Shown here: positions 7,256 to 44,025 of the stretch, piece after piece
Numbering within the stretch: position 1 is the first letter of the stretch
Layout of the letters: each line of letters begins with the position of its first letter
DNA from: a virus
UHGV virus genome: UHGV-1440165
DNA: 64,000 nt
Reading direction: 5' to 3' (one strand)
Position numbers and translations under genes: made by a program
The notes under the pieces: generated by a model
What the model saw: the letters and a program-made list of their open reading frames with translations, nothing else
What the model was told of the DNA's origin: nothing
Database searches by the model: none

Positions 7256-7269
7256 GGTATAGATGCCTC

Positions 7270-7296: not shown

Positions 7297-7300
7297 TGGT

Positions 7301-8344: not shown

Positions 8345-8441
8345 TTCTTAATTCCTCTGTTTCCGCCCCTCGGGGCTATTCTGTTGCATGTATTTTCAGT
8401 TTGTTTCAAGCGGGGTAATTATACCCCGATACTACATTGAA

Positions 8442-8681: not shown

Positions 8682-8688
8682 AATATGC

Positions 8689-15740: not shown

Positions 15741-15965
15741 TCAGCGTTTGAGGCTGGCGGCGAGTCCACTAACGTCGGTCACGGTCTGGTCAGCGAGGAC
15801 GATAACAGGCATCGACATGCGCTGCTTACCCGTCAACTTCTGAAGTTCTTCCAGCTGATAATCCTTGTCCAGCTTCAGAATCTTGTGGTCCAGCCCTTTC
15901 ATCTTGCACAGATTTTCAGCTGTAACACACTGCGCGCAACCTTGTTTAGAGTAGATCGTAATCAT
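15741..15965 (-). CDS. glutaredoxin/NrdH-like redoxin
   Basis: CAQC active-site motif, 74 aa, directly upstream of nrdB/nrdA. Confidence 0.65.
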   Translation of the reverse strand: MITIYSKQGCAQCVTAENLCKMKGLDHKILKLDKDYQLEELQKLTGKQRMSMPVIVLADQTVTDVSGLAASLKR

Positions 15966-15974
15966 TTCTCACCT

Positions 15975-17078
15975 TTAAGCGAATTTGAGACCGTCGGATA
16001 CTGAACCAGTCAGTACACCCATCAGATAATCAGGAGCTTCCGCTTCCTGCAACGCGTACTGCATTGTCTTATTATTTAGCCACTCGTTGATCCATGGCAC
16101 TGGGCATTCCTTACGTGGTTCCCCAGGATATGGGTGTCCGATAGCGCCCATGCGGTGGGTGAGCAACCAGTCTACCATATGGTGTAGGATCTTCGCGTTC
16201 AGGCCAAGCATGGAGCCGTCCTGGAACAGATAGTCAGCCCATTGCTTCTCCTGATTACCCACGTCCAAGAACATCTGGGTCATCTCACCACGCAGTTCCT
16301 CACGGATGATTTCGAAGTCAGGGTCCATACCAGGCAGGCGGTTCAGCAGAGTCTGGGTAAGGATCAAGTGGTCTTGCTCATCACGGGCGATCTGGCGGAT
16401 GATTTTAGCGTTGCCTTCCATCTTCTTCTGGAACTGCGTGAACGCCCAAGAGCATGCAAAGGACACGTAGAAGCGGATGCCTTCCAGTGTGTTGGCAGCA
16501 AACAGAGCACGCCAGAATGCGCGTTTGGCATTCATAATGTCTTCACGAGTAAAGGCGCGACCAGCCATACGCATACCACTGTAACGAACCATATCGTCAT
16601 AGTGAGTACTAATCTGATGAGCGCAGTCCACGATCTCTGCAACGTCTAACACGTGGTCAAACACGATACCAGGATCGTTCACAGTGTTTCGCAGGATGTG
16701 GGTGTACGACAGGGAGTGAATGGCTTCTTGACGTGTCCACTCAAGGACGGCGAACTGCATTTCAGGGGTAGACGCCCATGGACCAAACGCCTCGAACGGA
16801 GCCGCGCCCTGGATAGAATCCAGCATGGTCTGGCGCTTCAGGTTGCTTTCATAGATGCGCTTTTCAGCAGGTGTGAGTGTTGCATAGTCGGCCTTGTCCT
16901 TAGTGATGTCTACTTCTTCCGGACGCCAGAACTGGCTGAGGCCTTTCTCATACCACTTCTGTACGAATGGCCAAGCTACGATGTCATAGCGCTGAATGCT
17001 CACCGGATCGCCGAAGAACGGCAGGCCAGTGTTGTCAGAGCTTGGGTCGAATACGGAGAATTGTTTCTGTTCGCTCAT
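15975..17078 (-). CDS. nrdB: ribonucleotide reductase class Ia beta subunit
   Basis: Ferritin-like di-iron R2 motifs, 367 aa, adjacent to nrdA. Confidence 0.9.
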   Translation of the reverse strand: MSEQKQFSVFDPSSDNTGLPFFGDPVSIQRYDIVAWPFVQKWYEKGLSQFWRPEEVDITKDKADYATLTPAEKRIYESNLKRQTMLDSIQGAAPFEAFGPWASTPEMQFAVLEWTRQEAIHSLSYTHILRNTVNDPGIVFDHVLDVAEIVDCAHQISTHYDDMVRYSGMRMAGRAFTREDIMNAKRAFWRALFAANTLEGIRFYVSFACSWAFTQFQKKMEGNAKIIRQIARDEQDHLILTQTLLNRLPGMDPDFEIIREELRGEMTQMFLDVGNQEKQWADYLFQDGSMLGLNAKILHHMVDWLLTHRMGAIGHPYPGEPRKECPVPWINEWLNNKTMQYALQEAEAPDYLMGVLTGSVSDGLKFA

Positions 17079-29034: not shown

Positions 29035-29673
29035 TTACGGTGTTGGGTTCACAACAGGAATATGGAATCTGATTCCAGCGATGATGTCCTTCAGCTGAGG
29101 TTTCCAGCCAGCCACCAAGCGAGGGAGAGCGACAGAACCGGGCTGAACTAAAATGATGTCGCTGCCTGTGATGTTGTGCTGAGGGAATTGGGCAAGATAT
29201 TGCTCCATTGTGACGCCCGGATCAATCAGAACAGGACCAACATCAGATGATGCATAAGTCGCACCCAGACCGTCAACACCCCATGCCAAGATACCCCAGT
29301 CAGGGATGTTGGCTTCAGATGTGATGGTGAACCCAAACACGGTGTTCAGCGAGGTGAAGGAGTAGACGTCGTGAGTGATGTCATACACCAGATACCCCTT
29401 GGCCAGCATATCGGCAAAGATCGCGTCTGTGTCTCCCGCCGCTGGAGTCGGTACGGTAAACAACAGCTCACCAGCCGGAGGAACAGGATACGTGCCGAGG
29501 GCATAGAGGCACCATGCGTCAATGCACTTCTTAATGAATGTCTCTGACGCCACATAATCGGCAAGGCGAACCGTGCCTGAGTACTCGGATACGATGATGC
29601 CTTCCTTCGCGCCCTGTAGAGCAATGAAGACCAAGATATGTTCATATCCGGTCTGGGATGGAGTGATGTTCAT
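29035..29673 (-). CDS. hypothetical protein (212 aa)
   Basis: ORF. Confidence 0.5.
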   Translation of the reverse strand: MNITPSQTGYEHILVFIALQGAKEGIIVSEYSGTVRLADYVASETFIKKCIDAWCLYALGTYPVPPAGELLFTVPTPAAGDTDAIFADMLAKGYLVYDITHDVYSFTSLNTVFGFTITSEANIPDWGILAWGVDGLGATYASSDVGPVLIDPGVTMEQYLAQFPQHNITGSDIILVQPGSVALPRLVAGWKPQLKDIIAGIRFHIPVVNPTP

Positions 29674-30287
29674 TATCTTGTCCTCTTCAGTTTCTCTATT
29701 GTGCGCTTGTTCATGGCGATCACCTGAGGGTCCACCTCAGAGATTGAGCGCCCTTTGAAGGACACACATTTCTGAAGATATTTAGCTTTCTTCACGACGT
29801 CAGCAGCATATGCATTGGACGCAGAATTACGGGCGAAGCCAGCATTGTACGAGGAGAGGGATTTGCGGACATTCTGTTTGTGATAGGTCAACCAGAACTG
29901 CATCTCATCGAGGGCGGCCTGAGCAGCATATTCCTGATCAGTCAGCAGCTTGACAGCAACATTGGCATAACACTTGCGATTCTTACAACCTTCGCGATCA
30001 CCAACAGTCTTCACCTTATTCTGAAAGGCTCCCATGTTGGCCGCCTTGAGGCCGTATCGCATTGACACTACATCTTCACCAGCGCGGCTCTCTCGCCAGG
30101 ATATGGCAGCCAGGGTGTAACCAAGATCTTGTGTCTTGCCTATGTGATAGGCAGTTGCCAGCGTATTAAGTTGTTGCTCAGAGAAATCATAAACACATTG
30201 ACTTGTATTTTGGGAAGCGTGCACATTCCCGCTGGCAATGGTAAAGGTCACGGATAAGGCCATGGCCTTCAACGTTGTCATCGTCAT
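29673..30287 (-). CDS. secreted protein with signal peptide; possible transglycosylase-like fold
   Basis: N-terminal signal peptide (cleavage near VHA-S); WRES motif; function uncertain. Confidence 0.4.
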   Translation of the reverse strand: MTMTTLKAMALSVTFTIASGNVHASQNTSQCVYDFSEQQLNTLATAYHIGKTQDLGYTLAAISWRESRAGEDVVSMRYGLKAANMGAFQNKVKTVGDREGCKNRKCYANVAVKLLTDQEYAAQAALDEMQFWLTYHKQNVRKSLSSYNAGFARNSASNAYAADVVKKAKYLQKCVSFKGRSISEVDPQVIAMNKRTIEKLKRTR

Positions 30288-30386
30288 GATGGCGTTCCTT
30301 ATGTGGTTTGTCGACTTGCAGCTCGATTGAGCCTCCTGACAGGGGTTAAAAGATAAAGGGCACGTGATATTTAGTGCCCTTCAGCC

Positions 30387-30671
30387 TCATTCGTAGATGA
30401 GGTGGTAGGATTCCTCGATACACTCCAGCCAGCCATAGACGAACTCCATCGGGTCATCCCAGGCCGTATTGGTCGCGACGGTGAAGTTGCCGTCCAGGAT
30501 CTGCATATCGTGGTACTTGTTGAAAGCGAGCACAGCGTCAACCACAATCAGGCCGCCTTGCTCAAGATAACGATTCGGATTGACCGTCACCTGATAATGC
30601 GGGTTCCGGCGGTTCCATATCTCCACAGCAATGTCACAGGATTCCTGAATTTCATCTTTGTTTTCTGACAT
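30387..30671 (-). CDS. hypothetical protein (94 aa)
   Basis: ORF. Confidence 0.45.
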   Translation of the reverse strand: MSENKDEIQESCDIAVEIWNRRNPHYQVTVNPNRYLEQGGLIVVDAVLAFNKYHDMQILDGNFTVATNTAWDDPMEFVYGWLECIEESYHLIYE

Positions 30672-30981
30672 ATGTTTGTCTCAGGTGTTCAGTAAAGGAT
30701 TTACCCAGCTTGCGGAATAGTTTAATACGCCCGATGACTTTGACGTAAACATCTCCGTGACAGGGGTGCGGCTTACACCAGCACCCCAGGATCTTCCCAT
30801 CAAGCTCAAGGAGTTCATCCTCGGTGATATCCCCTTCAATCAGGCGCACATACAGATCGTCCTCAAACAACTCTATGCAGTTGCCCCGCCCGTGGTCTTT
30901 GACCTCGAATGGGTTCCCCCATTTACCGGGACGACCGATGTAGATGTCGTATGGCTCCTTCTTGAAGTGGACGACTTTCAT
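30652..30981 (-). CDS. DUF4326-family protein
   Basis: Characteristic pattern VHFKKEPYDIYIGRPGKWGNPF ... GCWCKPHPCHGDV. Confidence 0.6.
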   Translation of the reverse strand: MKVVHFKKEPYDIYIGRPGKWGNPFEVKDHGRGNCIELFEDDLYVRLIEGDITEDELLELDGKILGCWCKPHPCHGDVYVKVIGRIKLFRKLGKSFTEHLRQTYVRKQR

Positions 30982-31146
30982 TTCAGGATTTGACCTGCAA
31001 GTAGATAACAGAACCAGACAGAGAACCCGAGATACCCCAGTGCTTTCAGGTAGTTTTTCCTTTCGGTTTCACGAGAAAATGCAATGATGTCAATGATGCA
31101 TGCAAAGATCAGAATAGCCAGTTTAATTTGTTCGTAGTTCATGATC
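30982..31146 (-). CDS. small membrane protein (~54 aa), not in ORF track; coordinates approximate
   Basis: Hand translation MNYEQIKLAILIFACIIDIIAF...; ATG overlaps stop of gp46-like gene (ATGA). Confidence 0.3.
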
Positions 31147-33481
31147 AATCCTTCTTGATAACTTCGGTCAGGCCGTTGCGCAGGCCATAGCGAATATTGT
31201 GTTGGAAGTATTCCTGGAACTCCTGCTCACGCTGGCTGATGACAAACAGGTTGTTTCCGCCGAACTTATGCTTCAGCATCTCAACCGATTCCTGCACCCC
31301 GCGCTCACTCATGTTCTCAAGGATTTCGTCCAGGACAAACAGATTACATTGCACCGATGCCTTGAGGTTAGCCACGTCACGCAGAGCTAGTGTCACCGCC
31401 AGGTTCAGGCGGCTCCGCTGGCCAGTAGACAGGGAGAAGATGCTCTGCCCCTTGCGGCCTGCTGCACTCATGGTGATCTCAAAGGTATCGTCAACAACGA
31501 TGTCCAGGAACATATTGAGGGCTTCAAGATACTCGTTGATCTTGCTATTGAGGAATGGCAAGTACAGGGCGATGATGCGCGCCTTGGTCTGATCATCCTT
31601 CAGGAAGAACAACAGGTGCTGTAAGTCCTGGAGTTCCTGGTCAGCATCCTCGCCGCGCTGGTATAGATCTTCCAGTTCACCCTCAATCGAGGAGATGGCA
31701 TTCTCCAGGTCGGCGGTAGGCGTCGGCTGTACGGCCAGTTTACGCTCCAGGTCGGCAATGGACGCCACGAGAGGAGCACGACGGGCTTTCATCTCGGCGA
31801 TCTTATCATCGACGGCTTTAATCCCGCTGACGGCATTCTCTCGCGTTTGTTGTAGTGACGCAGTGATATCATCGAAGCGCACATTCAGTGCCTTGCGGAT
31901 ATCAAGGATCTTCTGCTGGCATTCACGATTCAGAGAGTTGCACTCAATCGTGGCTGCATCATGGAATCCCTGAATGTCACGGCGCAGTTGCTTGATGTTA
32001 TCAACGATCTCATCAGCCTGTTTGCGCATGGCGTCCAGTTCAGCATCCAACACAGCAATGTCCGCAACCAGCTTGTCGTCCTGAGCCTTATGGTCATCAA
32101 TCAGGGCAGTGACTTCGGCGGTGACTTTATCCAACTGGTTTAACTTCGATTGCAGTTCCTGGATCTGAGGATTGTACTCGCTCTCAATGCGCGCTTTGGT
32201 ATCGTCGGACACCAGCTGGGTACACGTCGGGCAAGTCCCCATGTCGTGGAAGCGCTTGATGGCTGACTGATGGCCGTCCATTTCTGTTTGGAAACGGATG
32301 CGGAAGTTCTCACCCTGTTGGCGGCGCTGGATAGCAGCGTTCAGGGCGTCCAGGTTTGTGTTGCGCTCGGTGAGCAGAGTGTTTTTGCTTTCGGCTACTG
32401 TAAAGGCGCGGTCACGCAGGACCTGAAGATCATGCTCAGCAGCAGAAACCTCGATGCGTTCATAATCGTCGGCCTTTTCCTGGGCGACATCCTTCACCGC
32501 CTGGATCTTGGCATCAAAGTCTTTCTTGACAGCCTCGATCTCCACCATGGATTCATCATGCAGGCGGCTTTCTACCGTCTTCATTTCCTGGGTGGCTTCA
32601 AACTCAACCGCAGTGAGGCGGGTGCGCTCCTCATTCTGTGCGGCGATGTCAGCGTCCAAGGACTTCAGGGCTTCCTGTTGCTGTAAAAGGATATCAGCCG
32701 ACTGCTGCTGGATCAGGGCGTTGGATTGCTCAATCTGCTGCAGCTGCGTTTTCTTGTTCGTGTGGTCAACAACCTTCAGGGCGCACTCATTGGCGATCGT
32801 GTCCAGCTTTTCGTTCGCTTTCTTGATGGACGCCTTGACATCTTCATTCATCAGGCTGAAGAAGCCCAAGTCCCAGATAGTCTCCACCATGGCGCGGCGG
32901 TCGGCGGTGTACATCTCGGTGAACGGAATGAACTTCTCTTTACCCAGCACCAGAGAGTTCTCAAACATCTTCTGGTCCACTCCGATGAGGTTCACGATGT
33001 ACTTGTTCATGTCGGCTTTGGCTGCTTCGTTATCGATCTGCATCCATTTGCCGTCCACCATCTGATGGACTTCAACAAAGTCAGGCTTGATGCCACGACG
33101 AACCTTCCATTCGCTGCCACGGCAGGCAAACTCCACCTCACCCACACATTCCTTGCGGCTCTGTGAGTTCACCAGGCCTGCCTTCTTCTCCTTCTTGCTG
33201 TACGTGTCGTTGTACAGTACGAAGAACAACAGCCATACCAGCATCGTGGATTTACCCGCGCCGTTATCGTCAGACGTGACGAGGGTGGCCGGGTTGCGCT
33301 GGTAATCGATCTCCATGAACTGATTGCCGATGGAGCGGAAGTTCTTGGCGCGGCCTTTGCGGAAGGTCAGTTTGTGCGTAATGTTGTCACACACTTCAAA
33401 TGGGACTTCGACCTCAACCGGAGTGTCGGCTACCTTCAAAAGATTGCCAAATTTGGCCAGGATATCTGTGCTCTGAGTCAT
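31145..33481 (-). CDS. Rad50/SbcC-like recombination ATPase (T4 gp46-like)
   Basis: Walker A DDNGAGKST, long coiled coil with zinc-hook CPTC, signature LSTGQRSR, Walker B LFVLDE. Confidence 0.85.
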   Translation of the reverse strand: MTQSTDILAKFGNLLKVADTPVEVEVPFEVCDNITHKLTFRKGRAKNFRSIGNQFMEIDYQRNPATLVTSDDNGAGKSTMLVWLLFFVLYNDTYSKKEKKAGLVNSQSRKECVGEVEFACRGSEWKVRRGIKPDFVEVHQMVDGKWMQIDNEAAKADMNKYIVNLIGVDQKMFENSLVLGKEKFIPFTEMYTADRRAMVETIWDLGFFSLMNEDVKASIKKANEKLDTIANECALKVVDHTNKKTQLQQIEQSNALIQQQSADILLQQQEALKSLDADIAAQNEERTRLTAVEFEATQEMKTVESRLHDESMVEIEAVKKDFDAKIQAVKDVAQEKADDYERIEVSAAEHDLQVLRDRAFTVAESKNTLLTERNTNLDALNAAIQRRQQGENFRIRFQTEMDGHQSAIKRFHDMGTCPTCTQLVSDDTKARIESEYNPQIQELQSKLNQLDKVTAEVTALIDDHKAQDDKLVADIAVLDAELDAMRKQADEIVDNIKQLRRDIQGFHDAATIECNSLNRECQQKILDIRKALNVRFDDITASLQQTRENAVSGIKAVDDKIAEMKARRAPLVASIADLERKLAVQPTPTADLENAISSIEGELEDLYQRGEDADQELQDLQHLLFFLKDDQTKARIIALYLPFLNSKINEYLEALNMFLDIVVDDTFEITMSAAGRKGQSIFSLSTGQRSRLNLAVTLALRDVANLKASVQCNLFVLDEILENMSERGVQESVEMLKHKFGGNNLFVISQREQEFQEYFQHNIRYGLRNGLTEVIKKD

Positions 33482-33482
33482 G

Positions 33483-34598
33483 TTATGCGTCCAATTTGTT
33501 CAGGCGTTGTTGGGCAGCATTGTAGAAATGCTCTGCCAGTTTACAGACGTTGTCAGGGCGCTGGATGTTGTTCCCGGCGCGGATATCCTTCTTCAGGACT
33601 TCCACCGCATCGGTCGCCACCATCTCTTCGGTGACCTCAACCTTCTCAGCCGCCACTGTAATCGTCCGGTCTATGAAGTTGTAGTCAATGCACTTGCAGC
33701 GCTTCATTGCATCACAGAACTTTTCATAATGCTTGGCGTTGTCACGGTTCTGTACGATAACCTTAACGATTTGCCCTTCAATACCCAAGCCTGTGTTCAG
33801 CCATTCCGGGTCGATCCAGTTGCCTTCTTCATCGGAGGACAACTTGGTGTAGTCATACTCCACGAACCGGAAGAGCGTCTGGTGCTCGGCGTTCGGGATA
33901 AAGATCTCGCCACCGCGCATGTCGTCTACATAGAAGCCCCGGTTGGTGCCGTCTTTGTAGTCTTCCCAGTTCAGGTGATACGGAGTCCCAATATACTGAA
34001 TGTTACCTTCCATCGAACGGGTATGGAAATGCCCTGTGTCGACCCGGTCAAACTTGGAAAGCAATGCAACGTCGATCTGACCGTGATCACAAGTAGAGGA
34101 CTGGTACATTTTGAACCCTGCCAGCTCCAGATGCGCAAAACAGTACTTGGCGTCTGTATCTTGTATCGCCTTAATAGACGCATCATAGTTCTCCTTGTTG
34201 ATCCACGGTAGGAGCAGGGTCTTAACGCCCTCGATCATTACTTCAGTCGGTTCACTGTAATAGTGATAGACATCTGGGTCGAGTTCGTTCAGGTAGGACG
34301 GCCAGTTGATGCGGTTGGACTCTTCCAGGGTGATGTCATGGTTGCCCACGATGCCATTCCACTTGATACCAGCAGCTTTCAGCGCAGGAGTGAGTTCGTC
34401 CTTCAGCCAGTCTTTGTCGCGCCCGTACATGAATTTGCGGACATCAAAGGTGTCACCAAACTGCCAGATCTCTTTGATGTCAGAGTCAACAAGCTCAGGG
34501 ATGAAGTAATTGATGAGATAGTTCTTTATGAAGTCGCGAACGTAACGGGAACCATTACGGCTCCCGATATGCAGATCGCCGATTTTAGCAATCGCCAT
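33483..34598 (-). CDS. Mre11/SbcD-like nuclease (T4 gp47-like)
   Basis: Calcineurin-like phosphoesterase motifs GDLHIG, GDTFD, GNHD. Confidence 0.85.
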   Translation of the reverse strand: MAIAKIGDLHIGSRNGSRYVRDFIKNYLINYFIPELVDSDIKEIWQFGDTFDVRKFMYGRDKDWLKDELTPALKAAGIKWNGIVGNHDITLEESNRINWPSYLNELDPDVYHYYSEPTEVMIEGVKTLLLPWINKENYDASIKAIQDTDAKYCFAHLELAGFKMYQSSTCDHGQIDVALLSKFDRVDTGHFHTRSMEGNIQYIGTPYHLNWEDYKDGTNRGFYVDDMRGGEIFIPNAEHQTLFRFVEYDYTKLSSDEEGNWIDPEWLNTGLGIEGQIVKVIVQNRDNAKHYEKFCDAMKRCKCIDYNFIDRTITVAAEKVEVTEEMVATDAVEVLKKDIRAGNNIQRPDNVCKLAEHFYNAAQQRLNKLDA

Positions 34599-35326
34599 TA
34601 TTCTGTTTCTCCTTCGTTTTCGTCCAGATCGAATTGGGTGTTGCCGAAGTCTTGATCTGAATTGTCTTCGGCCTGCGCTGTTACCGTATTCTTACCTTGT
34701 GACATGTATTGAAGTATGCCTTTCGCGATCTTTTTGTTCGATTCGGCGGCTCGGGCGTTCTCTACCTTCTCCCGCTCCTTCTGTCTTTGGGCATCCTTCT
34801 TGTTTTCGAAGTTTCCGATGCGCTCGCGGAAGTCCATGCCAATCCCAGTGGCATCAACAAAGATCTCTTGTTGGAAGTCAGGATCATCGGCCAGGCCTGC
34901 AAATCCACCTGCCTCTTCAAAGGAACGCAGCTTGATGTATGTGTGCTCTTCTTCTATGTTCAGCTTGCGGGCAAATGAGCGGTCAGCGCACATGGTCACC
35001 CAGGAGAAGAAGTTGATCTTGCCTTTGCGCCCGACGTGACCAACATCGAAGGTGTGGAGATAGCGAAGGATGTTGACTACAGCTTCAGACACCATGTCAT
35101 CGCGGTACGGATAATCGCGGTAATTGTAGCGGGTGCTCATCTTGCTGATGATGCGCTGGACCTGGACTGCAACGTAGTTGGGGATCTTGGGGAGCGGTGT
35201 GCCTTCAGTTAATGCCTTCTTGCGAGCGGGGATCCAATCACGAAGGATACTGATGACACGCTCGTTATCTTCGTCCGTAAAATATTTGACGACATTCTCG
35301 CCACGATCAACATAATTCATACCCAT
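34598..35326 (-). CDS. late-transcription sigma factor (T4 gp55-like)
   Basis: Region similar to gp55 core; gene order 55-47-46 as in T4; TATAAATA boxes present in window. Confidence 0.55.
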   Translation of the reverse strand: MGMNYVDRGENVVKYFTDEDNERVISILRDWIPARKKALTEGTPLPKIPNYVAVQVQRIISKMSTRYNYRDYPYRDDMVSEAVVNILRYLHTFDVGHVGRKGKINFFSWVTMCADRSFARKLNIEEEHTYIKLRSFEEAGGFAGLADDPDFQQEIFVDATGIGMDFRERIGNFENKKDAQRQKEREKVENARAAESNKKIAKGILQYMSQGKNTVTAQAEDNSDQDFGNTQFDLDENEGETE

Positions 35327-35337
35327 TGTGGGAACCC

Positions 35338-35865
35338 TCAGATACCGATAAATTCATCAAAAGATCCAACAACCTTCTTCACAGAGATCTTGTCGTTCTC
35401 AATCAGGAAGTTGCTGTCGTTCTTGGCTGCGGTAGCCCATGTGTCCGCGAGTTCATTGCCTTCAACACCCGCATGACCTTTGACCCATTTTAGTTCAACT
35501 TCACAAATTGAACTAACGAGATCATATATTCTGAACAGATCTTTTATGAGTTCAACATTCTTTTCCGGGAACCCCTGATACTCCCACTTGGCTCGCCATT
35601 CGGTGACGCTCTTGATGGTGTATTGACTGTCAGACCAAATTGTTGCCTTTGGTATCCTGCGCTCACCCTTTCCCGAGAATGCCCACAGTAGCTTCAATGC
35701 GTTGGTCACACCCAACAACTCGGCGATGTTGTTGGTGGACGGAGGAGGTAGGTGGCCGAAGAACACCTTCCATTGCATACCCGATATCGGCCTGATGGCA
35801 AAAGCCCACCCTGCAGCCTGATTTGTCCGAGGGTTAGAACCCCCGTCAGAAAAGATTTCAATCAT
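35338..35865 (-). CDS. rnhA: ribonuclease H (RNase HI type)
   Basis: SDGGS, TNNIAELLG, SDSQY, KGHAGVEGNELAD catalytic motifs; start at MIEIF. Confidence 0.75.
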   Translation of the reverse strand: MIEIFSDGGSNPRTNQAAGWAFAIRPISGMQWKVFFGHLPPPSTNNIAELLGVTNALKLLWAFSGKGERRIPKATIWSDSQYTIKSVTEWRAKWEYQGFPEKNVELIKDLFRIYDLVSSICEVELKWVKGHAGVEGNELADTWATAAKNDSNFLIENDKISVKKVVGSFDEFIGI

Positions 35866-35867
35866 GA

Positions 35868-35875
35868 TATAAATA
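35868..35875 (+). promoter_or_regulatory. T4-type late promoter box TATAAATA
   Basis: Exact box ~36 nt upstream of ATG at 35911. Confidence 0.5.
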
Positions 35876-35910
35876 TCCCAAACTGGTTTTATAGAAAGAG
35901 GAATGAAACT

Positions 35911-36678
35911 ATGGCACCCCGCGCATATCGTTTCAGTCTCACCGCCCCGCAGATTGAGCAATTGCTCCTTTCTATCAATGATGCTATCAAGTCAGAAGAT
36001 ATCATCTATGATTATGCTACAGGTGGGACTGTTGGGCAAGTCGCAGCAGCGTCTGCCGTCAAGAACATGTGGCTCAAGCTCAATGAGATGGTGACAGGCC
36101 AAGGCCTCAAAGACGCCATCAACAGTGCTGGCGACAGCAACGTGTTCACCGACTATTATAAGTCTCTTCTGGATCGCGAAGGCTGGAAATTTATTGGCTC
36201 CCCAGCAGATATCCTGGCTCGAGACGATATCGACACCACGAACTTCACGGGCGGCGAAGTCATTCTACTTCAGAAGAACGCCTCAGGCAACCCTGAGTTC
36301 CAATACTGGAAGCGAACTCCCGTCGCGGGTGGTGACCCTACCTTCGCCTGGGCTTCGGTCTATGAAGGGAACTCCAACGACTCAACAATCGAAATCCCGG
36401 TGATCGGCACGAGCGTCCTCAAAGACATTCCCAAGGCTCTCTTCCATATGGTGGAGTTCCGAGTTCATGTCTATGACGAAACGCTGGGGCACTGGCAGGA
36501 TACAGACGGCAAGGTCGGTTATCGTGGTGAGGATCTGTTCTACAGCACGTACAATCATGTGCAGACCAAACCGCTCGCCACCATTGACTTCAGCCAAGAC
36601 ACAGACAGCATGAAGATCTCCGTGACTTCCCTGGAGCCGAATGTCAAATGCCATCTGTCGTTTATCGCTGGTTACTAA
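35911..36678 (+). CDS. hypothetical late protein (probable virion component)
   Basis: AAGAGGAA RBS; late promoter; plus-strand like other structural genes. Confidence 0.45.
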   Translation: MAPRAYRFSLTAPQIEQLLLSINDAIKSEDIIYDYATGGTVGQVAAASAVKNMWLKLNEMVTGQGLKDAINSAGDSNVFTDYYKSLLDREGWKFIGSPADILARDDIDTTNFTGGEVILLQKNASGNPEFQYWKRTPVAGGDPTFAWASVYEGNSNDSTIEIPVIGTSVLKDIPKALFHMVEFRVHVYDETLGHWQDTDGKVGYRGEDLFYSTYNHVQTKPLATIDFSQDTDSMKISVTSLEPNVKCHLSFIAGY

Positions 36679-38393
36679 ACCTCAAACACGGCATCGGTAA
36701 ACCAGGCGGGGAAGAACTCTGGGTTGCGCATCATCAATGATTCAAAAGACGAATCAAGGATGTATGTCGCAGCCCAGTCATTCACACCCCTGACCGAACG
36801 CCCGCACATCTGAACGATACGCAGCACCGCCATCCTGAAGTACGCCGAAGGGTCTACACTGTTGACATGAGCTACAAGCGGGTCACCCAGGTAGTCATAA
36901 GGCACTTTGATCAGGATTTGGAAGCGGCTGTAATCGCCTTTGAAGTCATACCCCTCTTCCATAGCCGGACTGGCAATCACACAAGGCTGCTTGGTCCGGA
37001 ACGCATGTTCCATGATATCCATCAGGGCTTTGCGAGTACGAGGCACATGAATGATGTTCCGGTACTTGCTGAACTTCTGTAGAGCCAGGGCACGGTCATA
37101 GCTAACGGTGTGGATGATACCGGACTGGCCGGGATGAAATGCGATGATCTCGTCCACGTACTCAGCCAGCTTCTTCATCTCGTAGTCGCCCATGTTCGCC
37201 GTCATCTTCATGACGGGCATGTAGTTGACCTTGCGATTCTCAATCGGGATAGGGTTGCCGATCTGAATCTTGTGGTACTCGCCATCACGGATGCCCAGTG
37301 ACCGGGCGTACGAGTCGATCCCGCAGATGGTCGCCGACATATGAACATGGTAATCGCCCTTGCGAAACAGGCCGAACTGGGACACATCAGACGCGATGAC
37401 AGGCTTGAACTGAATCATGCCCTTGTCCTTCTCCTGAACGATGAAGGTGCTGGCGTTGGTCTGTCCCATGATGCCGCAGTAGTCGCTGAGGTTGTGAAGG
37501 GTGTCTATGATGTCCGACAGCTTCATCACCTGGGCTTCCGTCAGGCGCTCGTCCTCGACCAGTTCCTCAAGAGTTTCCAGCAGGGCTTCAACCTTATCAT
37601 GCAGGTCGTCAAAGATTGCATGCATCTCACCTGTCAGCGAGTACAGCTTGCCCAACTCATAGTTCTCTGTGCGGATTACGATATCTTTGATGATCTCCAC
37701 GATAGGCACTCCCTCGGGGATCGTAAGCAACCCTTCCACAGCCTTTATGCTGTATTCCATGATCGTGTGCTCTAGGAGCGTAGAGGGCATCTTATGGCAC
37801 TCGTCAAGGATCAACATATCGGCACGGTTTTCTGGCTTCATACAGATCGTCGTACACATCTCCACCATCATGGCGGCGTTGGTGCAGCGCAGGGAGGAGA
37901 CGTCTGTCCACTGACGTCGCGCCTGAACATATGGGCAACGATTCTTGCTGCAGTGGCCATCCCGGCATGCCATACGGCACTGGATGGCGTTGTAGTACAG
38001 GTCAGGGCTGATATGGCAACGATAGTTCTTCTTGCCTTTCAGGATGTCTATCACCACTGCCCTTTCAGCCGCATACTGATCTTGCAGCCCTTTGGTCGGT
38101 GTCGTAATAGACGTGCGGAACTGACCATATGGGTTGCGCTCAAGAACCAGGTGGCGAAGCACATTATGAATAGTAGTACCGATCAGGGATTTACCCACAC
38201 CAGTTGGAGCCTCAATGATCACGTGTTTGACCTTCTTGTTCACGAGGGCATCAACGGCTTCAACGATGCATTCCATCTGGCCGGGGTTGGCGGTGTCGTA
38301 TGGGAAGAACTCAGTAGCAAGAGACTTGATGCGGTCTATGCTGACTGGTCCGACGCCATCGAGCGCCTTGGTGTATTGGTTGAATGCTGTCAC
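36675..38393 (-). CDS. DinG/Rad3(XPD)-family ATP-dependent helicase with Fe-S cluster domain
   Basis: Walker A EAPTGVGKS, DEAH-like LILDECH, four-Cys cluster CRMACRDGHCSKNRCPY. Confidence 0.65.
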   Translation of the reverse strand: MTAFNQYTKALDGVGPVSIDRIKSLATEFFPYDTANPGQMECIVEAVDALVNKKVKHVIIEAPTGVGKSLIGTTIHNVLRHLVLERNPYGQFRTSITTPTKGLQDQYAAERAVVIDILKGKKNYRCHISPDLYYNAIQCRMACRDGHCSKNRCPYVQARRQWTDVSSLRCTNAAMMVEMCTTICMKPENRADMLILDECHKMPSTLLEHTIMEYSIKAVEGLLTIPEGVPIVEIIKDIVIRTENYELGKLYSLTGEMHAIFDDLHDKVEALLETLEELVEDERLTEAQVMKLSDIIDTLHNLSDYCGIMGQTNASTFIVQEKDKGMIQFKPVIASDVSQFGLFRKGDYHVHMSATICGIDSYARSLGIRDGEYHKIQIGNPIPIENRKVNYMPVMKMTANMGDYEMKKLAEYVDEIIAFHPGQSGIIHTVSYDRALALQKFSKYRNIIHVPRTRKALMDIMEHAFRTKQPCVIASPAMEEGYDFKGDYSRFQILIKVPYDYLGDPLVAHVNSVDPSAYFRMAVLRIVQMCGRSVRGVNDWAATYILDSSFESLMMRNPEFFPAWFTDAVFEV

Positions 38394-38439
38394 TTGCTTC
38401 CTCCTATGGGATTCGCCTTTAGTTTAACCGATTCCCAAG

Positions 38440-38470
38440 AACGAAAAAGCCGGAGCGTTTGCCCCGGCTT
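38440..38470 (-). terminator. rho-independent terminator (AGCCGGGGCAAACGCTCCGGCT + TTTT)
   Basis: Stem-loop plus T-run after HU gene. Confidence 0.6.
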
Positions 38471-38521
38471 TCTCTTTTGCCATGCCCTGCGTTGCAGAGC
38501 CAGGCCGCGCGTCAGATAGAA

Positions 38522-38800
38522 TTACTTGCCGTTGGCAGCGTTCTTCAGACCTTCGCCCACTTTGAATTTCACAACGTTTTTCGCCGCGATCTGAATGGTC
38601 TGGCCGTTCAGAGGATTGCGACCTTCACGAGCTTCTTGTGCTTTAACTTCGAACGCGCCGAAGCCGACCAGCTGTACAGACGCGCCTGCAGCAACTGCAG
38701 TTTTAACGCCGTCGATAAAGGATGCCACTACTTTCTCCGCTTCGCCTTTGGTGATGTTCTGGGTCGAAGCAATGTGGGCAACAAATTCAGTACGATTCAT
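38522..38800 (-). CDS. HU/IHF-like DNA-binding protein
   Basis: MNRTEFV...GFGAFEVKAQEAREGRNP...; GGAGAAA RBS. Confidence 0.75.
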   Translation of the reverse strand: MNRTEFVAHIASTQNITKGEAEKVVASFIDGVKTAVAAGASVQLVGFGAFEVKAQEAREGRNPLNGQTIQIAAKNVVKFKVGEGLKNAANGK

Positions 38801-38894
38801 CTGGATTTCTCCGTTTGGGTTAATGTTTACTTTCATGTTCACTACAAGAGGACTACAGCTTACCTAACAAAACATATTGAATAAAGCGAAATTA

Positions 38895-39143
38895 TTAGTT
38901 TTCCGCCATGACTTCATTCGTCATCGTTCCCCTGCACCTACAGTGTTCACAGACCACGGCAACGCAAGGCTTAAACTTCTGAACACTGGCGACGGGGACA
39001 TTCACCGCATTTGGAAAAACTGGAATCTCTCTGGCTTCAATCCGTTGCTCAGAGAGACGGTCTTCATCCAAGAAGGTGACTGTCTTGTGCGGACAACGCA
39101 TTGACGCTTCACCTTCCCAGGTGATTACTGTGTTTGAGGTCAT
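38895..39143 (-). CDS. small Cys-rich protein (putative zinc-binding)
   Basis: CPH...CVAVVCEHCRC. Confidence 0.4.
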   Translation of the reverse strand: MTSNTVITWEGEASMRCPHKTVTFLDEDRLSEQRIEAREIPVFPNAVNVPVASVQKFKPCVAVVCEHCRCRGTMTNEVMAEN

Positions 39144-39427
39144 GATTCTACCTCCGATTTGGAGATGAATGATTCCATGTCTGACCGGGAAATAATCGTT
39201 TCTACACGATCTTCATCGATCAACATTTCGTTCAGAAGGTCATAGCCCAGCACTTGCACACCACGAACACCCCAAGACCTTTTCTTCAGCTCTGCCTCAA
39301 TACTCAGAACTCTCTGAACCGTTAGACCGCCGGAAGAGAATGGAACCGGATAGAAGGTGGAGCACATTTGCGCGCTGCCATTTAATCTATAGCGAACCAG
39401 CAGAACATCACACCATACACCAGCCAT
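39140..39427 (-). CDS. hypothetical protein (95 aa)
   Basis: ORF. Confidence 0.4.
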   Translation of the reverse strand: MAGVWCDVLLVRYRLNGSAQMCSTFYPVPFSSGGLTVQRVLSIEAELKKRSWGVRGVQVLGYDLLNEMLIDEDRVETIISRSDMESFISKSEVES

Positions 39428-39428
39428 G

Positions 39429-40091
39429 TTACACCTCCACCGCGTGGGACTTCAGGAGTTCGTCAATCGCTTTCTGTCCCATGTAGGAGAACGGGGTGCG
39501 CTGGTAGAACGCCCACAGTACCAGCTGAACAACGGCACGGGAACGGGTTTCAGCCGTCATCACCAGGTCACTGAAATGAGGAGACTCGGCTGTCCATTGG
39601 ATCACTTCGCCGAAGTCCTGATTGCAAGTCACAGAGATGCGGAACTTGTTGCACAGATCGTCGACTTCTTTGTAGGCATCGGTGGACACTCGGAGTTGTT
39701 CCGCATGCATCCAAGGGGTTGTGACGATCCTTTCACCCAATGTCTTGTCCGAAATGAACCATTCGACCGTTTTGTCAGATTTGGAGAATCCGTTGATGCG
39801 GTAGATACCGCCTTGTGACTCCATACTGCGCATGGCGTGATAGCGAGCATCGATTTCGTTGTTATGCATGGCATTGAAGTCAATGAACACGCGCCGCGCC
39901 AACACATCGTCCTCCGGCTGAAGAGCCAGGAAATCGTTCAGGCGGCTATAATGGAGGACATTGGAACCGTCGTGGCCATGTGTGCAATATGCGTAATAGC
40001 TGCCGATACGGGCGTGGGCAACATAAGACAACGGGGCGAAGAATAATCCGTCAGGATCAGGTCCGACGATGATAGAATAAAGTTTTTCCAT
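39429..40091 (-). CDS. hypothetical protein (220 aa)
   Basis: Start MEKLYS. Confidence 0.5.
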   Translation of the reverse strand: MEKLYSIIVGPDPDGLFFAPLSYVAHARIGSYYAYCTHGHDGSNVLHYSRLNDFLALQPEDDVLARRVFIDFNAMHNNEIDARYHAMRSMESQGGIYRINGFSKSDKTVEWFISDKTLGERIVTTPWMHAEQLRVSTDAYKEVDDLCNKFRISVTCNQDFGEVIQWTAESPHFSDLVMTAETRSRAVVQLVLWAFYQRTPFSYMGQKAIDELLKSHAVEV

Positions 40092-40146
40092 GATATAGTC
40101 TCTCAAATGAAAGGCGGCCTTATGATAAGCCGCCCGAGATTATTGA

Positions 40147-41064
40147 TTATTGGAAATCGCCAACATACATGTTCAGCTTGTCATCCCACTCCACGACGAC
40201 GCGGATCGTTCCGGAATCTTCAGGGAAGGTCAGCTTAGAGCACATGGCGCGGTTGACATAAGTCCCGCTCTGGTTGACGTTGTAGTCCTTCCCAGCACAG
40301 ACACCGAAACGTTTGAAGTCACGGGTCACCATCATGTTCAGAGTTGTCCAAGGGAGTGCATCGCGCAGGGCTTTACACAGGATGATCTTTCCATCCGGTC
40401 TGAAGGAGACAAACATCTCATTGGCAACCCGGCGGCGAGCAGGCGGTTCAAGTTCGCGCAGGGAGATGAATTCAGAGGGATCATCCAAGGCACCCAAGGC
40501 ACCCAGGGCGACCATGTCTTCGCGAACTTTACTGACAACTTCAGTTACTGCGGACACGACTTCAACAGCCGGATTCGCCTTAAATGGTTCAACAGTCTTG
40601 GACATCTTGGATACAGACATCCCATCACCCTTGCGCTTCTCCGCATATTGCTCGACGGACTTGTCGCTCACCGGAGGCAGTTTGGTGGCAGGGGTTATAA
40701 CCGGGCTTGCATCTGGTTTCGACTTCGGGGTGCTACGAGCCAGGCGAAGATTTTCTTGGGCTTGCAGAATACGCTCTTGTCGTGTCTGTGGAGCCTTTGG
40801 TGAGATCTTCGTACTGAAGTCAGAAACACCGACCCAGTCACCCTGGTCATTGCGCTTGGCAACCAATGTCAGTTTGTGGATGATGCCCTGCAGCTTGCTT
40901 TCACGCAAATTGTCGGCATACCAGAACCTGGCGCCCATCTCGAACTTCTCGGCGAAGATGACACGAGCGTCTTCATGTACGAGCATCACTCGAGCCGCGT
41001 TGGGAGCGAACGTTTTGTTCTTTTCAATGATCGCCGCAGCGATAGTTTTCGTCAGGAGCATCAC
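40147..41064 (-). CDS. hypothetical protein (305 aa)
   Basis: ORF. Confidence 0.5.
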   Translation of the reverse strand: MMLLTKTIAAAIIEKNKTFAPNAARVMLVHEDARVIFAEKFEMGARFWYADNLRESKLQGIIHKLTLVAKRNDQGDWVGVSDFSTKISPKAPQTRQERILQAQENLRLARSTPKSKPDASPVITPATKLPPVSDKSVEQYAEKRKGDGMSVSKMSKTVEPFKANPAVEVVSAVTEVVSKVREDMVALGALGALDDPSEFISLRELEPPARRRVANEMFVSFRPDGKIILCKALRDALPWTTLNMMVTRDFKRFGVCAGKDYNVNQSGTYVNRAMCSKLTFPEDSGTIRVVVEWDDKLNMYVGDFQ

Positions 41065-41111
41065 GATGTATTCCTATCGGTTCAATTGGAGGTTAAATTT
41101 TACCCTGAAAT

Positions 41112-41444
41112 CTATTTTGAAACGCCGACAAAGTCCTGGGCAATTCCCCGACAATACATCAGGTCGGTCTTCGTTTGTGGGCTGTTTTCTGCCGCCGACA
41201 TCATCATTGGCAGGTCCAGCGCATTCTCTATCTGGTCAACGCTGAACAGGTCAAGGCGCTTCAGCTCTCCCTCGAAGTCGGACAGGAGAATAGACGTGTC
41301 TTTGTCGTCCGGATGGAATTGCTGATACGTCTCCATCCAGGCAGCGCATGTATTCAGTTTGGACGGCGGGGCGGCATGTACCCCGCCGATATAGGCAACC
41401 ACGACAGCCAGGATTAACAAGAGGATGATTTTACGAGTCATCAT
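41112..41444 (-). CDS. small secreted/membrane-anchored protein
   Basis: N-terminal hydrophobic signal IILLLILAVVVAYIGGVHA. Confidence 0.5.
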   Translation of the reverse strand: MMTRKIILLLILAVVVAYIGGVHAAPPSKLNTCAAWMETYQQFHPDDKDTSILLSDFEGELKRLDLFSVDQIENALDLPMMMSAAENSPQTKTDLMYCRGIAQDFVGVSK

Positions 41445-42127
41445 TCGTTCTCCTTCATCATGTTATCACAGTCGACACGAGTCTGTTGCAGCTCACGCGA
41501 CATACGAGGATCGTCGAGGTTCACACTCAGATTCGTGGCCAGATCTTTCAGGCCGTTCTGAACACGATCCTCATAATAGTGGTCGTTCTCAACCAGCCAG
41601 GCTCTGAGGCCAAGAGCGCGGGTACGCCATTGTTTCTTCAGAACACGGTCGGTTGTTTGTTCGGCACTGTACTCAAAGACCTTGATGCACTGGTTGCCAT
41701 CGTCGATAAGGTTCAGGTGACGGCGGCCAATCTGCACACCCTTCTGTAATGCCGGAGAAGGGAGCGAACGGCACTGTCTGACGGTCATGCGTCCTTGGGT
41801 GCCCATACGCCCAGTCATGATCAGATCGCTGGCCTCCATGCCTCCACGGTTAAATTCGTCGTCATTGAGGTAGCCCTTGAGGTTATAGGCTCCCTGTTTG
41901 TATCGGTTGAACTCAATCCCGGCATTGACAACAGCGGTGGAGACGTTGCCTGTGTTCCAGAGTTCAGCAAAGTTCTCTATGGATCCAGACTTATCGATTG
42001 CGACTGCCTGGGAGAACCCAGCGCAGTAGGAAAGATCAGACCACAGTTTGTCACCTGTGGTGTTCAGCTTGGCAGCGGCAGGGAGTGCCAGACCTGCAAG
42101 CACAACCCCAAGGATTAAACGTTTCAT
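41441..42127 (-). CDS. secreted (periplasmic) protein
   Basis: Signal peptide MKRLILGVVLAGLALPAAA; AAGGAGAA RBS. Confidence 0.55.
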   Translation of the reverse strand: MKRLILGVVLAGLALPAAAKLNTTGDKLWSDLSYCAGFSQAVAIDKSGSIENFAELWNTGNVSTAVVNAGIEFNRYKQGAYNLKGYLNDDEFNRGGMEASDLIMTGRMGTQGRMTVRQCRSLPSPALQKGVQIGRRHLNLIDDGNQCIKVFEYSAEQTTDRVLKKQWRTRALGLRAWLVENDHYYEDRVQNGLKDLATNLSVNLDDPRMSRELQQTRVDCDNMMKENE

Positions 42128-42211
42128 GGTGATTCTCCTTATTTCATTGGATGAAATGATAGGCGGCTCACCATGCTGAGTAAAGGGTTTCAATAAACTA
42201 TCGTATTCAGA

Positions 42212-42670
42212 TTAGTACCGACTATCACTGACCGTCCGGTACTTCACACCCTTGAACTGCTTGGCAACCTTGACGAACTCCATCGCAGGCATGTCCACTT
42301 TGTAGACCTTGATGCGCTGACGGTCATCCATGTTCAGAGCAGCCACATAGCGGTGGGAGCCGTCGACCACATAGTTATCAGAAGACACCCAAACCCGACC
42401 CATGGGCTTCTTGTTTCTGATGTTCTTCATGATCTTCCAGACCTTCATCTTGTTGATTTCGTTCTGGGTGAGACGGAGCGATTTGATAGGAACCTGGCCA
42501 GCATCGATAGTGATGCCGAGTTCCTCCAGGTAGTCATGGAAGGCATCCTGTTTGTCATCGTCGATTTGTGGCATAGAAGAACGCGAAAGCCCGAGGTTTC
42601 CAACAGGAATCCTCAGGCCGTTGATAATGTTCAACCAGTCTATGAAGGAAGACATGAACATGAGATTCAC
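42212..42670 (-). CDS. ParB/Srx-like nuclease domain protein
   Basis: VVDGSHRYVAA resembles ParB/sulfiredoxin-fold DGxHR motif. Confidence 0.4.
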   Translation of the reverse strand: MNLMFMSSFIDWLNIINGLRIPVGNLGLSRSSMPQIDDDKQDAFHDYLEELGITIDAGQVPIKSLRLTQNEINKMKVWKIMKNIRNKKPMGRVWVSSDNYVVDGSHRYVAALNMDDRQRIKVYKVDMPAMEFVKVAKQFKGVKYRTVSDSRY

Positions 42671-42685
42671 CTCGGGATATGAATT

Positions 42686-42802
42686 ATCCCTTAGTTAGTC
42701 GTGAAATGTCTTGGCGAGAAACCTCCCGACATATTCACAAAAGGCAATGATCACTAAACCCAATCCGCAACCAATAAGCCAACCCCAAAATTCAATGTCC
42801 AC
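42686..42802 (-). CDS. small hydrophobic protein (~38 aa), not in ORF track; coordinates approximate
   Basis: Hand translation MVDIEFWGWLIGCGLGLVIIAFCEYVGRFLAKTFHD; ATG overlaps upstream stop (TGATG). Confidence 0.3.
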
Positions 42803-42804
42803 CA

Positions 42805-43092
42805 TCACACCTCGTCTTCTTCAGGTCCACCGTCAATCAGGATACGAGCGGTGTCGAAAGTTTCCCCGCCCGTGTTCAGCAGCTTGGTCAGATCGTCAAG
42901 ATATCGGACCGTGCCAAGATCAGATGACCGCGTTATAAATTCCAGCATACCATACAGGGCTGATTTGAATCGGCTGTTGTCGATATCGTTCTTGATTTCC
43001 ATCAGGCGCAAGATGTTCTCTGACTGAGTATGGCCAACACACGCCTTGTCTCTGATCATCTCCTTGATAGAACTTCTCTCTGTTGGTGTCAT
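42805..43092 (-). CDS. hypothetical protein (95 aa)
   Basis: ORF. Confidence 0.4.
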   Translation of the reverse strand: MTPTERSSIKEMIRDKACVGHTQSENILRLMEIKNDIDNSRFKSALYGMLEFITRSSDLGTVRYLDDLTKLLNTGGETFDTARILIDGGPEEDEV

Positions 43093-43466
43093 AACGAACC
43101 ACCCCCGACAGAGATCAAGAACTCTTCTTCAATGGTCGTGACCGGGCGGCGGTTGCGGGTTTCGATCATGAAGCCCCAGCCGCCGTCGGCGACGTTGCCA
43201 AAGGTCTTGACGCCAAAGGTCTTCTTCCCGTTGGAGCAGGCATAGAAGTCCAGGATGAACGGGCTACCCTGATTGTCGATCCCACGGTTTACGCCGTCCG
43301 CTACACAGCGCTCAATCATCTTCCCGTTCTTATACAGAACGAGGTCTTGGCCATACGCCTTGAAAGCATAAACGCCGTTGGTAGACACTCCGGTGATGAC
43401 AGGAGGAGCGGAAACAGCAGAGAAGGAAGCGCCCAGCAGGGCAACGGCGAGGATTAACTTTTTCAT
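43089..43466 (-). CDS. secreted protein
   Basis: Signal peptide MKKLILAVALLGASFSAVSA. Confidence 0.55.
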   Translation of the reverse strand: MKKLILAVALLGASFSAVSAPPVITGVSTNGVYAFKAYGQDLVLYKNGKMIERCVADGVNRGIDNQGSPFILDFYACSNGKKTFGVKTFGNVADGGWGFMIETRNRRPVTTIEEEFLISVGGGSL

Positions 43467-43518: not shown

Positions 43519-44025
43519 TTATAGGGTAACAAGTGATACGGTAAAAACCATCGTCCCGTCAGTTGCCATTTTTCTTGAAACTGGTATGACGCGAGGCTGG
43601 CAGAATATCCATTCTTTCTCCATGGACGCCAAGTCCAGCATATCCATTTCTGATTCATCGCCTTTGTTCACAAATTTTTCTAGAGAACCATAGACATTAA
43701 GCCCCTCCGGGAGTCCGTTTCGATGTTTGTAACATATGCGGGCGACAGCTCTGGTTCCATACGATTTAGAAAATTGTTTGGCCACATGCTTCAGTTCACT
43801 GAAGCTAAGACAAGAATCCCATGTCTGAAACATGTCTCCTCGTTCAAACATCATCTCCAAACGCGCAACGTCCTCTTTAGGCAACCCGCGATAAAGTGTG
43901 GTCATCTGCGGTTCGCGTAATTCTCGCACCAGACCACGGATGGCAGGGGAAACAGTGCCAGGGCGCATGATGTGGGACTTATCATGGACGAGGTAAAATA
44001 AATCTTGAATTTGTTGATCGGTCAT
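43519..44025 (-). CDS. mono-ADP-ribosyltransferase, T4 ModA/ModB-like
   Basis: R motif TLYRGLPKE (T4 ModA PLWRGVPAE), S-x-S region DSCLSFSE, ExE-like SMEKEWIF, in ModA order and spacing. Confidence 0.55.
   Translation of the reverse strand: MTDQQIQDLFYLVHDKSHIMRPGTVSPAIRGLVRELREPQMTTLYRGLPKEDVARLEMMFERGDMFQTWDSCLSFSELKHVAKQFSKSYGTRAVARICYKHRNGLPEGLNVYGSLEKFVNKGDESEMDMLDLASMEKEWIFCQPRVIPVSRKMATDGTMVFTVSLVTL

Follow-up and report, generated by a model that had tools for sequence, protein, structure and literature searches.

Five genes in a 64,000-nucleotide stretch of virus DNA (UHGV virus genome UHGV-1440165; the whole stretch is called the window) encode proteins with conserved export signals. 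The best overall explanation of this gene set, which we hold to be probable though well short of assured, is that SLT204 (29673-30287, minus strand) is an orthologue of T4 Vs.1, that p228 (41441-42127, minus strand) and p110 (41112-41444, minus strand) form a periplasmic complex that is not a spanin, that p125 (43089-43466, minus strand) is an accessory secreted protein, and that the DUF7424 protein (63140-63790, plus strand) is a core lipoprotein. The window comes from a phage of the Ackermannviridae: across the 15 kb around these genes, identity is 96.7% with Salmonella phage pSal-SNUABM-02, 89-94% with Agtrevirus-type and related Ackermannviridae, and 60-80% with the family's other genera. 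Its gene order is that of a T4-like replication and recombination module, with gp46/47, a gp55-like sigma factor, RNase H, a helicase and HU, followed by an Alt/Mod-like ADP-ribosyltransferase, uvsY and uvsW.

Export signals and conservation of the five proteins

All five open reading frames to which the original prediction had drawn attention, with no strand given, are present in the window, four on the minus strand and one (63122-63790) on the plus strand. They are genuine conserved genes under purifying selection, and their products belong to four unrelated families. The ratio of nonsynonymous to synonymous substitution rates (dN/dS) is 0.04-0.17 among p228, p110, p125 and SLT204, and was not computable for the lipoprotein gene because its synonymous sites are saturated. 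Sequence-profile searches of the PDB with the five proteins gave nothing below E 0.2, and scans of Pfam and NCBIfam with distant homologues and neighbouring genes gave nothing significant except Band_7 in a neighbour gene of one relative. None of the five proteins' counterparts was detected by mass spectrometry in CsCl-purified virions of phage Sajous1 (PMC10892097).

Every one of the five N-termini combines a basic n-region and an uncharged hydrophobic core with a small-x-small cleavage site or, in the 63122-63790 open reading frame, a lipobox (taken as [LVI][ASTVI][GAS]C at the end of the signal peptide). Cleavage sites were read by rule and by conservation across orthologues rather than by a trained predictor, and would fall between MTMTTLKAMALSVTFTIASGNVHA and SQ in SLT204, between MMTRKIILLLILAVVVAYIGGVHA and AP in p110, between MKRLILGVVLAGLALPAAA and KL in p228 and between MKKLILAVALLGASFSAVSA and PP in p125, while the signal of the lipoprotein ends in LMLACAMLLLTS directly before its Cys. 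The signal of SLT204 is the weakest of the five, with a best 10-residue Kyte-Doolittle window of 1.86. The signal peptides and all Cys residues of p228 and p125 are conserved across orthologues; the signal peptide of p110 drifts in sequence while keeping its architecture and Ala-x-Ala end, unlike the mature domain and its two Cys, which are invariant. Distant relatives of p228 and p110, at about 30% identity, likewise bear Ala-x-Ala signals. In a crude signal-peptide scan of all open reading frames of the window, p110, p228 and p125 came out top among those matching genes annotated in related phages; another frame that scored high (6851-7255, minus strand) was judged, by position mapping only, to be spurious and to lie inside the ssDNA-binding protein gene. 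The signal peptides originally predicted for the 29673, 41112, 41441 and 43089 frames are borne out by both the rule-based reading and orthologue conservation, and export of all five predicted products to the envelope is well supported.

SLT204 and T4 Vs.1

Judged by homology and motifs, SLT204 is the Ackermannviridae orthologue of T4 Vs.1. The two proteins share 31% identity (BLASTP, E 5e-19), and the Pfam SLT profile gives 21.0 bits with SLT204, just under its cut-off of 21.3, and 25.1 bits, a pass, with T4 Vs.1. Homologues of SLT204 were found by tblastn in 2141 phage records, T-even phages among them, and the match in T6 adjoins vs, which is the position of vs.1 in T4. The segments W-R-E66-S, G86-A-F-Q and Y147-N-A-G150 are all present in SLT204, and we take their E-S, G-x-x-Q and Y-N-x-G elements to be the motifs of family-1 lytic transglycosylases. 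In an alignment of five orthologues, from Agtrevirus-type, Kuttervirus, Vibrio, T4 and Acinetobacter phages, E66, G86, Y147, N148, G150 and the Trp of W-x-E are invariant and every N-terminus is hydrophobic; T4 Vs.1 starts with MRKALLAGLLAISMMAHS, and the export signal is therefore a trait of the family. The dN/dS of SLT204 is 0.09. Like T4 Vs.1, SLT204 belongs to the same length class and combines a signal-peptide-like N-terminus and the ES, G-x-F-Q and Y-N-x-G motifs with a basic mature protein (pI, the isoelectric point, is 9.6 for exported SLT204). It differs in having four Cys and a C-terminal extension of 25 residues, and in an N-terminal segment of low hydrophobicity that hardly varies between genera: the first 24 residues (30216-30287), rich in Ala, Ser, Thr and Gly, are identical at 23 of 24 positions in Kuttervirus SFP10, where the whole protein is 81% identical.

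SLT204 is thus predicted to be a Sec-exported family-1 lytic transglycosylase that would cut the glycan strands of peptidoglycan from the periplasmic side. To this extent the original suggestion of envelope-modifying factors holds, for SLT204 as an envelope-modifying enzyme by homology to T4 Vs.1. A conserved but marginal SLT match in vs.1 was noted earlier, and a role in lysis was suggested (PMC1524935).

Two features lie close to the SLT204 gene on the same strand. Just upstream, at 30348-30380, is a hairpin (AGGGCAC/GTGCCCT) followed by a T-run, and 0.7 kb upstream, at 30978-31148, is a gene for a 56-residue protein with two predicted membrane spans, which is called a holin in the RefSeq record of phage MK-13 but whose PHROG (34593) carries the label 'unknown function'.

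The p228-p110 pair

The genes for p228 and p110 overlap by 4 nt, the larger gene first, and Shine-Dalgarno-like sequences precede both ATG codons (AAGGAG for p228, GAAGGAG for p110). By consensus match a sigma70-like promoter, TTTACT-N17-TATCAT, lies upstream of p228 (42156-42184, minus strand); its -35 and -10 hexamers are identical in MK-13, CAU_YEP3 and Kuttervirus SFP10, and the intergenic region is nearly so. The third gene of the predicted operon encodes p305 (40147-41064, minus strand; phrog_3828, function unknown), which has no export signal and is 57% identical to its SFP10 counterpart. No promoter or terminator match was found between p110 and p305, and an intrinsic-terminator-like hairpin (40112-40135, minus strand), with a 9-bp stem, 6 G-C pairs and the T-rich tail TTCATTT, closes the p228-p110-p305 unit. 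From this layout p228 and p110 are predicted to be a co-transcribed and translationally coupled pair.

The promoter form TTTACT-N17-TAT(T/A/C)(A/C)T, usually with CC in front, has six copies on the minus strand (44760, 44404, 42184, 29004, 22616 and 15714), with a weaker one at 4214, and is absent from the plus strand. The T4-type late motif TATAAATA occurs three times in the window, at 5853, 11119 and 35868, always on the plus strand, and the scan of the window found no copy upstream of any of the five genes. Since the sigma70-like motif is confined to one strand and TATAAATA to the other, it is reasonable to suppose that host RNA polymerase carries out early transcription, and we infer that the motif before p228 functions as a promoter. 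The early operons of the original prediction accordingly find a counterpart at least in the p228-p110 operon with its conserved sigma70-like promoter; no such promoter was recognised directly upstream of the SLT204 gene, nor a conserved promoter upstream of the lipoprotein gene.

The p228 gene is present in 271 phage records, all of enterobacterial Ackermannviridae. A word-indexed search of 5.8 billion proteins with p228 and p110 returned Ackermannviridae-type sequences only, and a p228 profile run exhaustively against 1.84 billion representative proteins gave just 10 matches. Three distant p228 matches, two of them full-length, at about 30-35% identity, all have Ala-x-Ala signal peptides, and directly behind each, with an overlap, comes a p110 homologue likewise equipped with a signal peptide; the 4-nt arrangement is the same in relative L008 and in Serratia phage 3M, and the overlap is 1 nt in metagenomic relative L009. 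The pair is confined to the Ackermannviridae and is always inherited together. In Serratia phage 3M (a Miltonvirus; 8001-8683) only the N-terminal half of p228 is kept, as a protein of 126 residues followed by the overlapping p110 homologue, and therefore that half may be what works with p110.

Genes of other kinds stand near the pair in several of these phages. A 'putative superinfection exclusion protein' (Pfam GP17) is encoded about 0.7 kb downstream in Serratia phage 3M. In L008 the pair is directly followed by a gene (2745-3077) for a third secreted protein, of 110 residues with two Cys and a signal ending in MKLSNIFLAVVLMSPLSTFA before Ala, which has no evident similarity to p125 and suggests that the p228-p110 locus tends to collect exported proteins. 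SFP10 (15768-16777) and L009 (7028-8028) carry, between the pair and the HU gene, genes for a small two-span membrane protein and an SPFH/Band_7 lipoprotein with the lipobox L-S-G-C or L-T-G-C, both of which the window lacks. In the window a gene for a 152-residue protein resembling the N-terminal part of ParB (42212-42670, minus strand) lies directly upstream of the p228 promoter; its product aligns to the middle of the 740-residue profile phrog_2859, and a homologue was detected in Sajous1 virions with 11 spectra (PMC10892097).

The identity of p228 to its Kuttervirus counterpart is 88%, compared to 83% for the helicase and 71% for gp46, and falls to 32-35% in the distant relatives, whose helicase holds at 63-64%. 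A partner that is conserved among Enterobacteriaceae is one possible explanation for identity that is high within enterobacterial phages and low beyond them. The dN/dS of p228 is 0.04-0.05, and the four Cys of p228 and two Cys of p110 are all invariant, distant full-length homologues included. A very unlikely account of the secreted proteins is that p228, p110 and p125 act on host periplasmic functions unrelated to entry or lysis, for example by inhibiting proteases, nucleases or envelope stress sensors, or by making the cell immune to bacteriocins or type VI effectors.

No match to p228 was found among Pfam, NCBIfam or PDB sequences, and its AlphaFold2 (AF2) model, with a mean predicted local distance difference test (pLDDT) score of 35, was unusable for a fold search. 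The AF2 model of p110 is the only usable one of the pair, a compact five-helix bundle (pLDDT 86.8); mature p110 has 86 residues, a pI of 4.3 and 2 Cys. Shared K-L-N-T and Y-C motifs raised the possibility that p110 and p228 are paralogues, which was rejected (BLASTP E 0.02 over 11 residues; hhalign probability 5%).

Public records give the pair a function. PHROG family phrog_3843, to which p110 belongs, is named 'Rz-like spanin', and RefSeq, GenBank and UniRef records use 'Rz-like spanin' and, for p228 in some of them, 'i-spanin'. On this account the pair would be a two-component spanin that fuses the membranes at the last step of lysis, with p228 as the i-spanin in the inner membrane and p110 as the o-spanin in the outer. 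As in lambda Rz/Rz1, two adjacent genes for envelope proteins overlap with the larger first, and with its overlap of 4 nt this order is reminiscent of overlapped spanin pairs; in T4, too, the spanin genes sit in a region of early genes, and a lipobox-like L-I-A-G-C is found in two of 22 aligned p110 orthologues. However, p110 of the window has no lipobox, its signal ending in G-G-V-H-A before A-P, and the same is true of the other 20 aligned orthologues and of all three distant homologues. The 12-residue hydrophobic core of p228, followed by P-A-A-A before Lys, looks more like a cleavable signal than a transmembrane anchor and is kept in distant homologues. The modelled fold of p110 would be a compact helical bundle, neither a coiled coil nor an extended or proline-rich chain, and p228 contains 10% Gly plus Pro, its longest stretch free of both being 28 residues and that of Rz 88. 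Neither protein has a Pfam match at E<=0.1, spanin families included, or an NCBIfam match, and hhalign comparisons of both with lambda Rz gave probabilities of 0.1-0.4%, so that the sole link of p110 to a spanin family is the name on phrog_3843. Manual curation by the Young laboratory (Kongari et al. 2018) counts these phages as spanin-less (PMC6139136), the main-text table listing Vi01, SFP10, Maynard, SJ2, SJ3, CBA120, ECML-4, PhaxI, AG3 and RC-2014; the supplements of that paper contain no entry for these phages. The spanin account is highly improbable, and we reject it as a label without foundation. The original prediction, which had offered a spanin-like pair as an alternative, was in agreement with public annotation on this point, and the proposal fails on lipobox, fold and family match; its own reservation that neither p110 nor p228 looks like a lipoprotein was correct.

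The small size and acidity of p110 direct attention to two periplasmic proteins of T4, Spackle (Sp, gp61.3; mature form 75 residues, pI 4.6, 2 Cys) and the antiholin RI (73 residues, pI 4.9, 2 Cys). p110, with or without p228, could be a functional analogue of Spackle that inhibits the gp5-like tail lysozyme of a superinfecting phage or, alternatively, the phage's own exported SLT, with superinfection exclusion and resistance to lysis from without as the outcome; we consider this unlikely. p110 is like Spackle in being small, acidic, secreted and, by its model, all-helical, with two Cys near the ends of the mature chain, and its gene likewise has early and middle genes around it and stands behind the sigma70-like promoter of the pair. 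The Ackermannviridae have a gp5-like tail lysozyme in addition to the basic exported SLT, and a weak match to Pfam T4_Spackle (E 0.088) was obtained with two of 37 members of the p110 family. Full-length hhalign of p110 against Spackle gave a probability of 11.7%. The idea of homology had been suggested by the C-x-W and Y-C layout and by the two weak Pfam matches. With the mature domains the probability was 0.1% and the score of 9.2 fell below those of column-shuffled controls, which reached 15.8; p110 was therefore rejected as a homologue of Spackle, and the weak full-length matches stem from the signal peptides. Three fold searches with the confident p110 model retrieved neither Spackle nor RI. 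p110 also differs from Spackle in being always paired with p228, whereas Spackle acts alone. Of the precedents that had been proposed for these proteins, no relationship to T4 Imm or Sp was found: the p110-Spackle comparison stands at 0.1%, and none of the five proteins has a hydrophobic 19-residue window beyond its N-terminus, so that internal spans of the kind found in Imm are lacking. In the alignment of T4 Spackle orthologues (among them relative L007, 7759-8052) an invariant Ser-Cys inside the signal peptide, L-A-S-C in T4, resembles a lipobox and lies upstream of the accepted Ala-x-Ala cleavage site.

RI has a small acidic periplasmic domain with two Cys behind a cleavable signal peptide (PMC8385771), which p110 resembles. 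The pair could accordingly control the timing of lysis as a periplasmic antiholin or sensor module, comparable to the combination of RI and holin T's periplasmic domain, or in a variant of this idea could be part of an as yet undescribed route of outer-membrane disruption among these phages without spanins. The pair is core and very strongly conserved in enterobacterial Ackermannviridae, which would suit an important role in lysis, and no holin or spanin is established for the family. We nevertheless regard control of lysis as quite unlikely: p110 has no sequence or fold similarity to RI and no T-type holin partner was identified, hhalign of p228 against holin T or Rz and of p110 against RI or Rz gave no signal (0.1-0.4%), no Pfam match connects the pair to T or RI, its genes are not adjacent to an annotated endolysin gene, and its products appear to be soluble rather than membrane-anchored. 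No lysis-inhibition phenotype is reported for Ackermannviridae. p110 may act like Spackle or RI, but it belongs to neither family.

On the reading that we prefer for p228 and p110, a periplasmic complex other than a spanin, both would be soluble periplasmic proteins, probably disulfide-bonded, made from a host-type promoter and hence probably early. They would most likely act together, the N-terminal half of p228 joining p110, a small, acidic and helical protein. Such a complex might bind a periplasmic envelope target, which could be a muralytic enzyme or else host envelope machinery that is conserved in the Enterobacteriaceae, and by doing so might protect or condition the envelope of the infected cell, as T4 Spackle or RI do, with no kinship to either.

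The DUF7424 lipoprotein, p125 and the envelope biology of Ackermannviridae

The lipoprotein matches Pfam DUF7424 over the full profile (E 8e-56) and is found in 295 phage records, at full length in all of them. The lipobox originally noted in the 63122-63790 frame is present as L-T-S-C, and its Leu and Ser-Cys (L-x-S-C) do not vary among five divergent orthologues, from phages of enterobacteria to those of Vibrio and Aeromonas; two more Cys are likewise invariant across the relatives from Kuttervirus, Taipeivirus, Vibrio and Aeromonas. The start codon is most likely GTG at 63140, or ATG at 63149 as annotated in relatives, and not TTG at 63122; GTG is favoured because it is conserved together with a preceding GGAG, while the downstream ATG is ATA in SFP10. 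Arg or Lys at position +2 predicts an outer-membrane location. The gene is divergent from those for a gp3-like tail completion protein and uvsY, and since there is neither a neighbouring type II membrane protein nor a C-terminal membrane span, its product is not recognisable as an o-spanin or a u-spanin. It is probably a lone lipoprotein with no i-spanin partner, of the kind described by Kongari et al. (PMC6139136).

The DUF7424 protein has something in common with receptor blockers of the T5 Llp and Cor type, Llp having been the third of the precedents originally proposed: it too is a lipoprotein encoded by a phage, and its predicted destination is the outer membrane. It differs in length, the mature DUF7424 protein having about 195 residues and mature Llp about 60, and in being core across the Ackermannviridae whatever the host receptor; the receptor of these phages is O-antigen or capsule and not a protein. 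Scans of Pfam and PHROGs with the DUF7424 protein returned no other family, Llp and Cor not being directly compared. The preferred explanation of the gene set places this protein as a family-wide core component, predicted to be in the outer membrane.

p125 is, by its predicted signal, an accessory secreted orphan protein, Gly-rich and likely to be mostly beta, with two invariant Cys and a dN/dS of 0.07 (phrog_5474, function unknown). It is encoded in 103 phage records, few of them from Salmonella phages, and is absent from the SFP10 region that was checked; no relatives were detected outside these records, and no Pfam or PDB match was found. Its gene lies downstream of the gene for the Alt/Mod-like ADP-ribosyltransferase (43519-44025). 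Elsewhere in the module, Yersinia phage CAU_YEP3 has a gene for a GIY-YIG homing endonuclease (6830-7552) between the sigma-factor and RNase H genes, which the window lacks.

Several considerations weigh against the explanation given here for the five proteins. Signal-peptide cleavage is predicted by rule; the hydrophobic core of p110 in the window, at 17 residues, is long enough for a membrane anchor; and the weakly hydrophobic N-terminus of SLT204 could be an anchor of the signal-arrest-release (SAR) type instead of a cleaved signal. Early timing is read from promoter consensus, and the SLT204 gene has no such promoter directly upstream. A protective role like that of Spackle would be inferred from location, size, charge and timing, and the sequence and fold comparisons with Spackle and RI were negative. 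p228 is a core gene, and conservation as strong as its own is seen more typically with essential functions than with exclusion factors; a role in superinfection exclusion, as first proposed for these proteins, is a guess. No function is reported in the literature for any of the five, and a 2024 review of the Ackermannviridae does not mention lysis, holin, spanin, periplasm or superinfection.

The most useful outcomes of this analysis are the orthology of the SLT protein with Vs.1, the correction of the spanin label, and the recognition that a core, co-inherited periplasmic pair is the first candidate to take into experiments on how these phages deal with the cell envelope. Spanin labels for p110 and p228 now stand in many genome records and in the name of a PHROG family on which annotation pipelines may draw; correcting them keeps an open question open. 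A rather unlikely proposal takes p228 and p110 for a periplasmic system of two proteins not recognised before, one that provides what is missing in the spanin-less Ackermannviridae; if true, it would mean either a new route of outer-membrane disruption or lysis control or a new mechanism of superinfection immunity, acting through a soluble, probably disulfide-bonded complex that has no relative among the solved structures searched. Ackermannviridae such as Vi01, CBA120 and LIMEstone-like phages are widely used in therapy, biocontrol and diagnostics, and the biology of their lysis and superinfection is essentially unstudied. SLT204 ties the question of their envelope to the equally uncharacterised vs.1 of T4, and the p228-p110 pair and the family-wide lipoprotein are the obvious genes to knock out for learning how these phages open or protect the envelope of their hosts.

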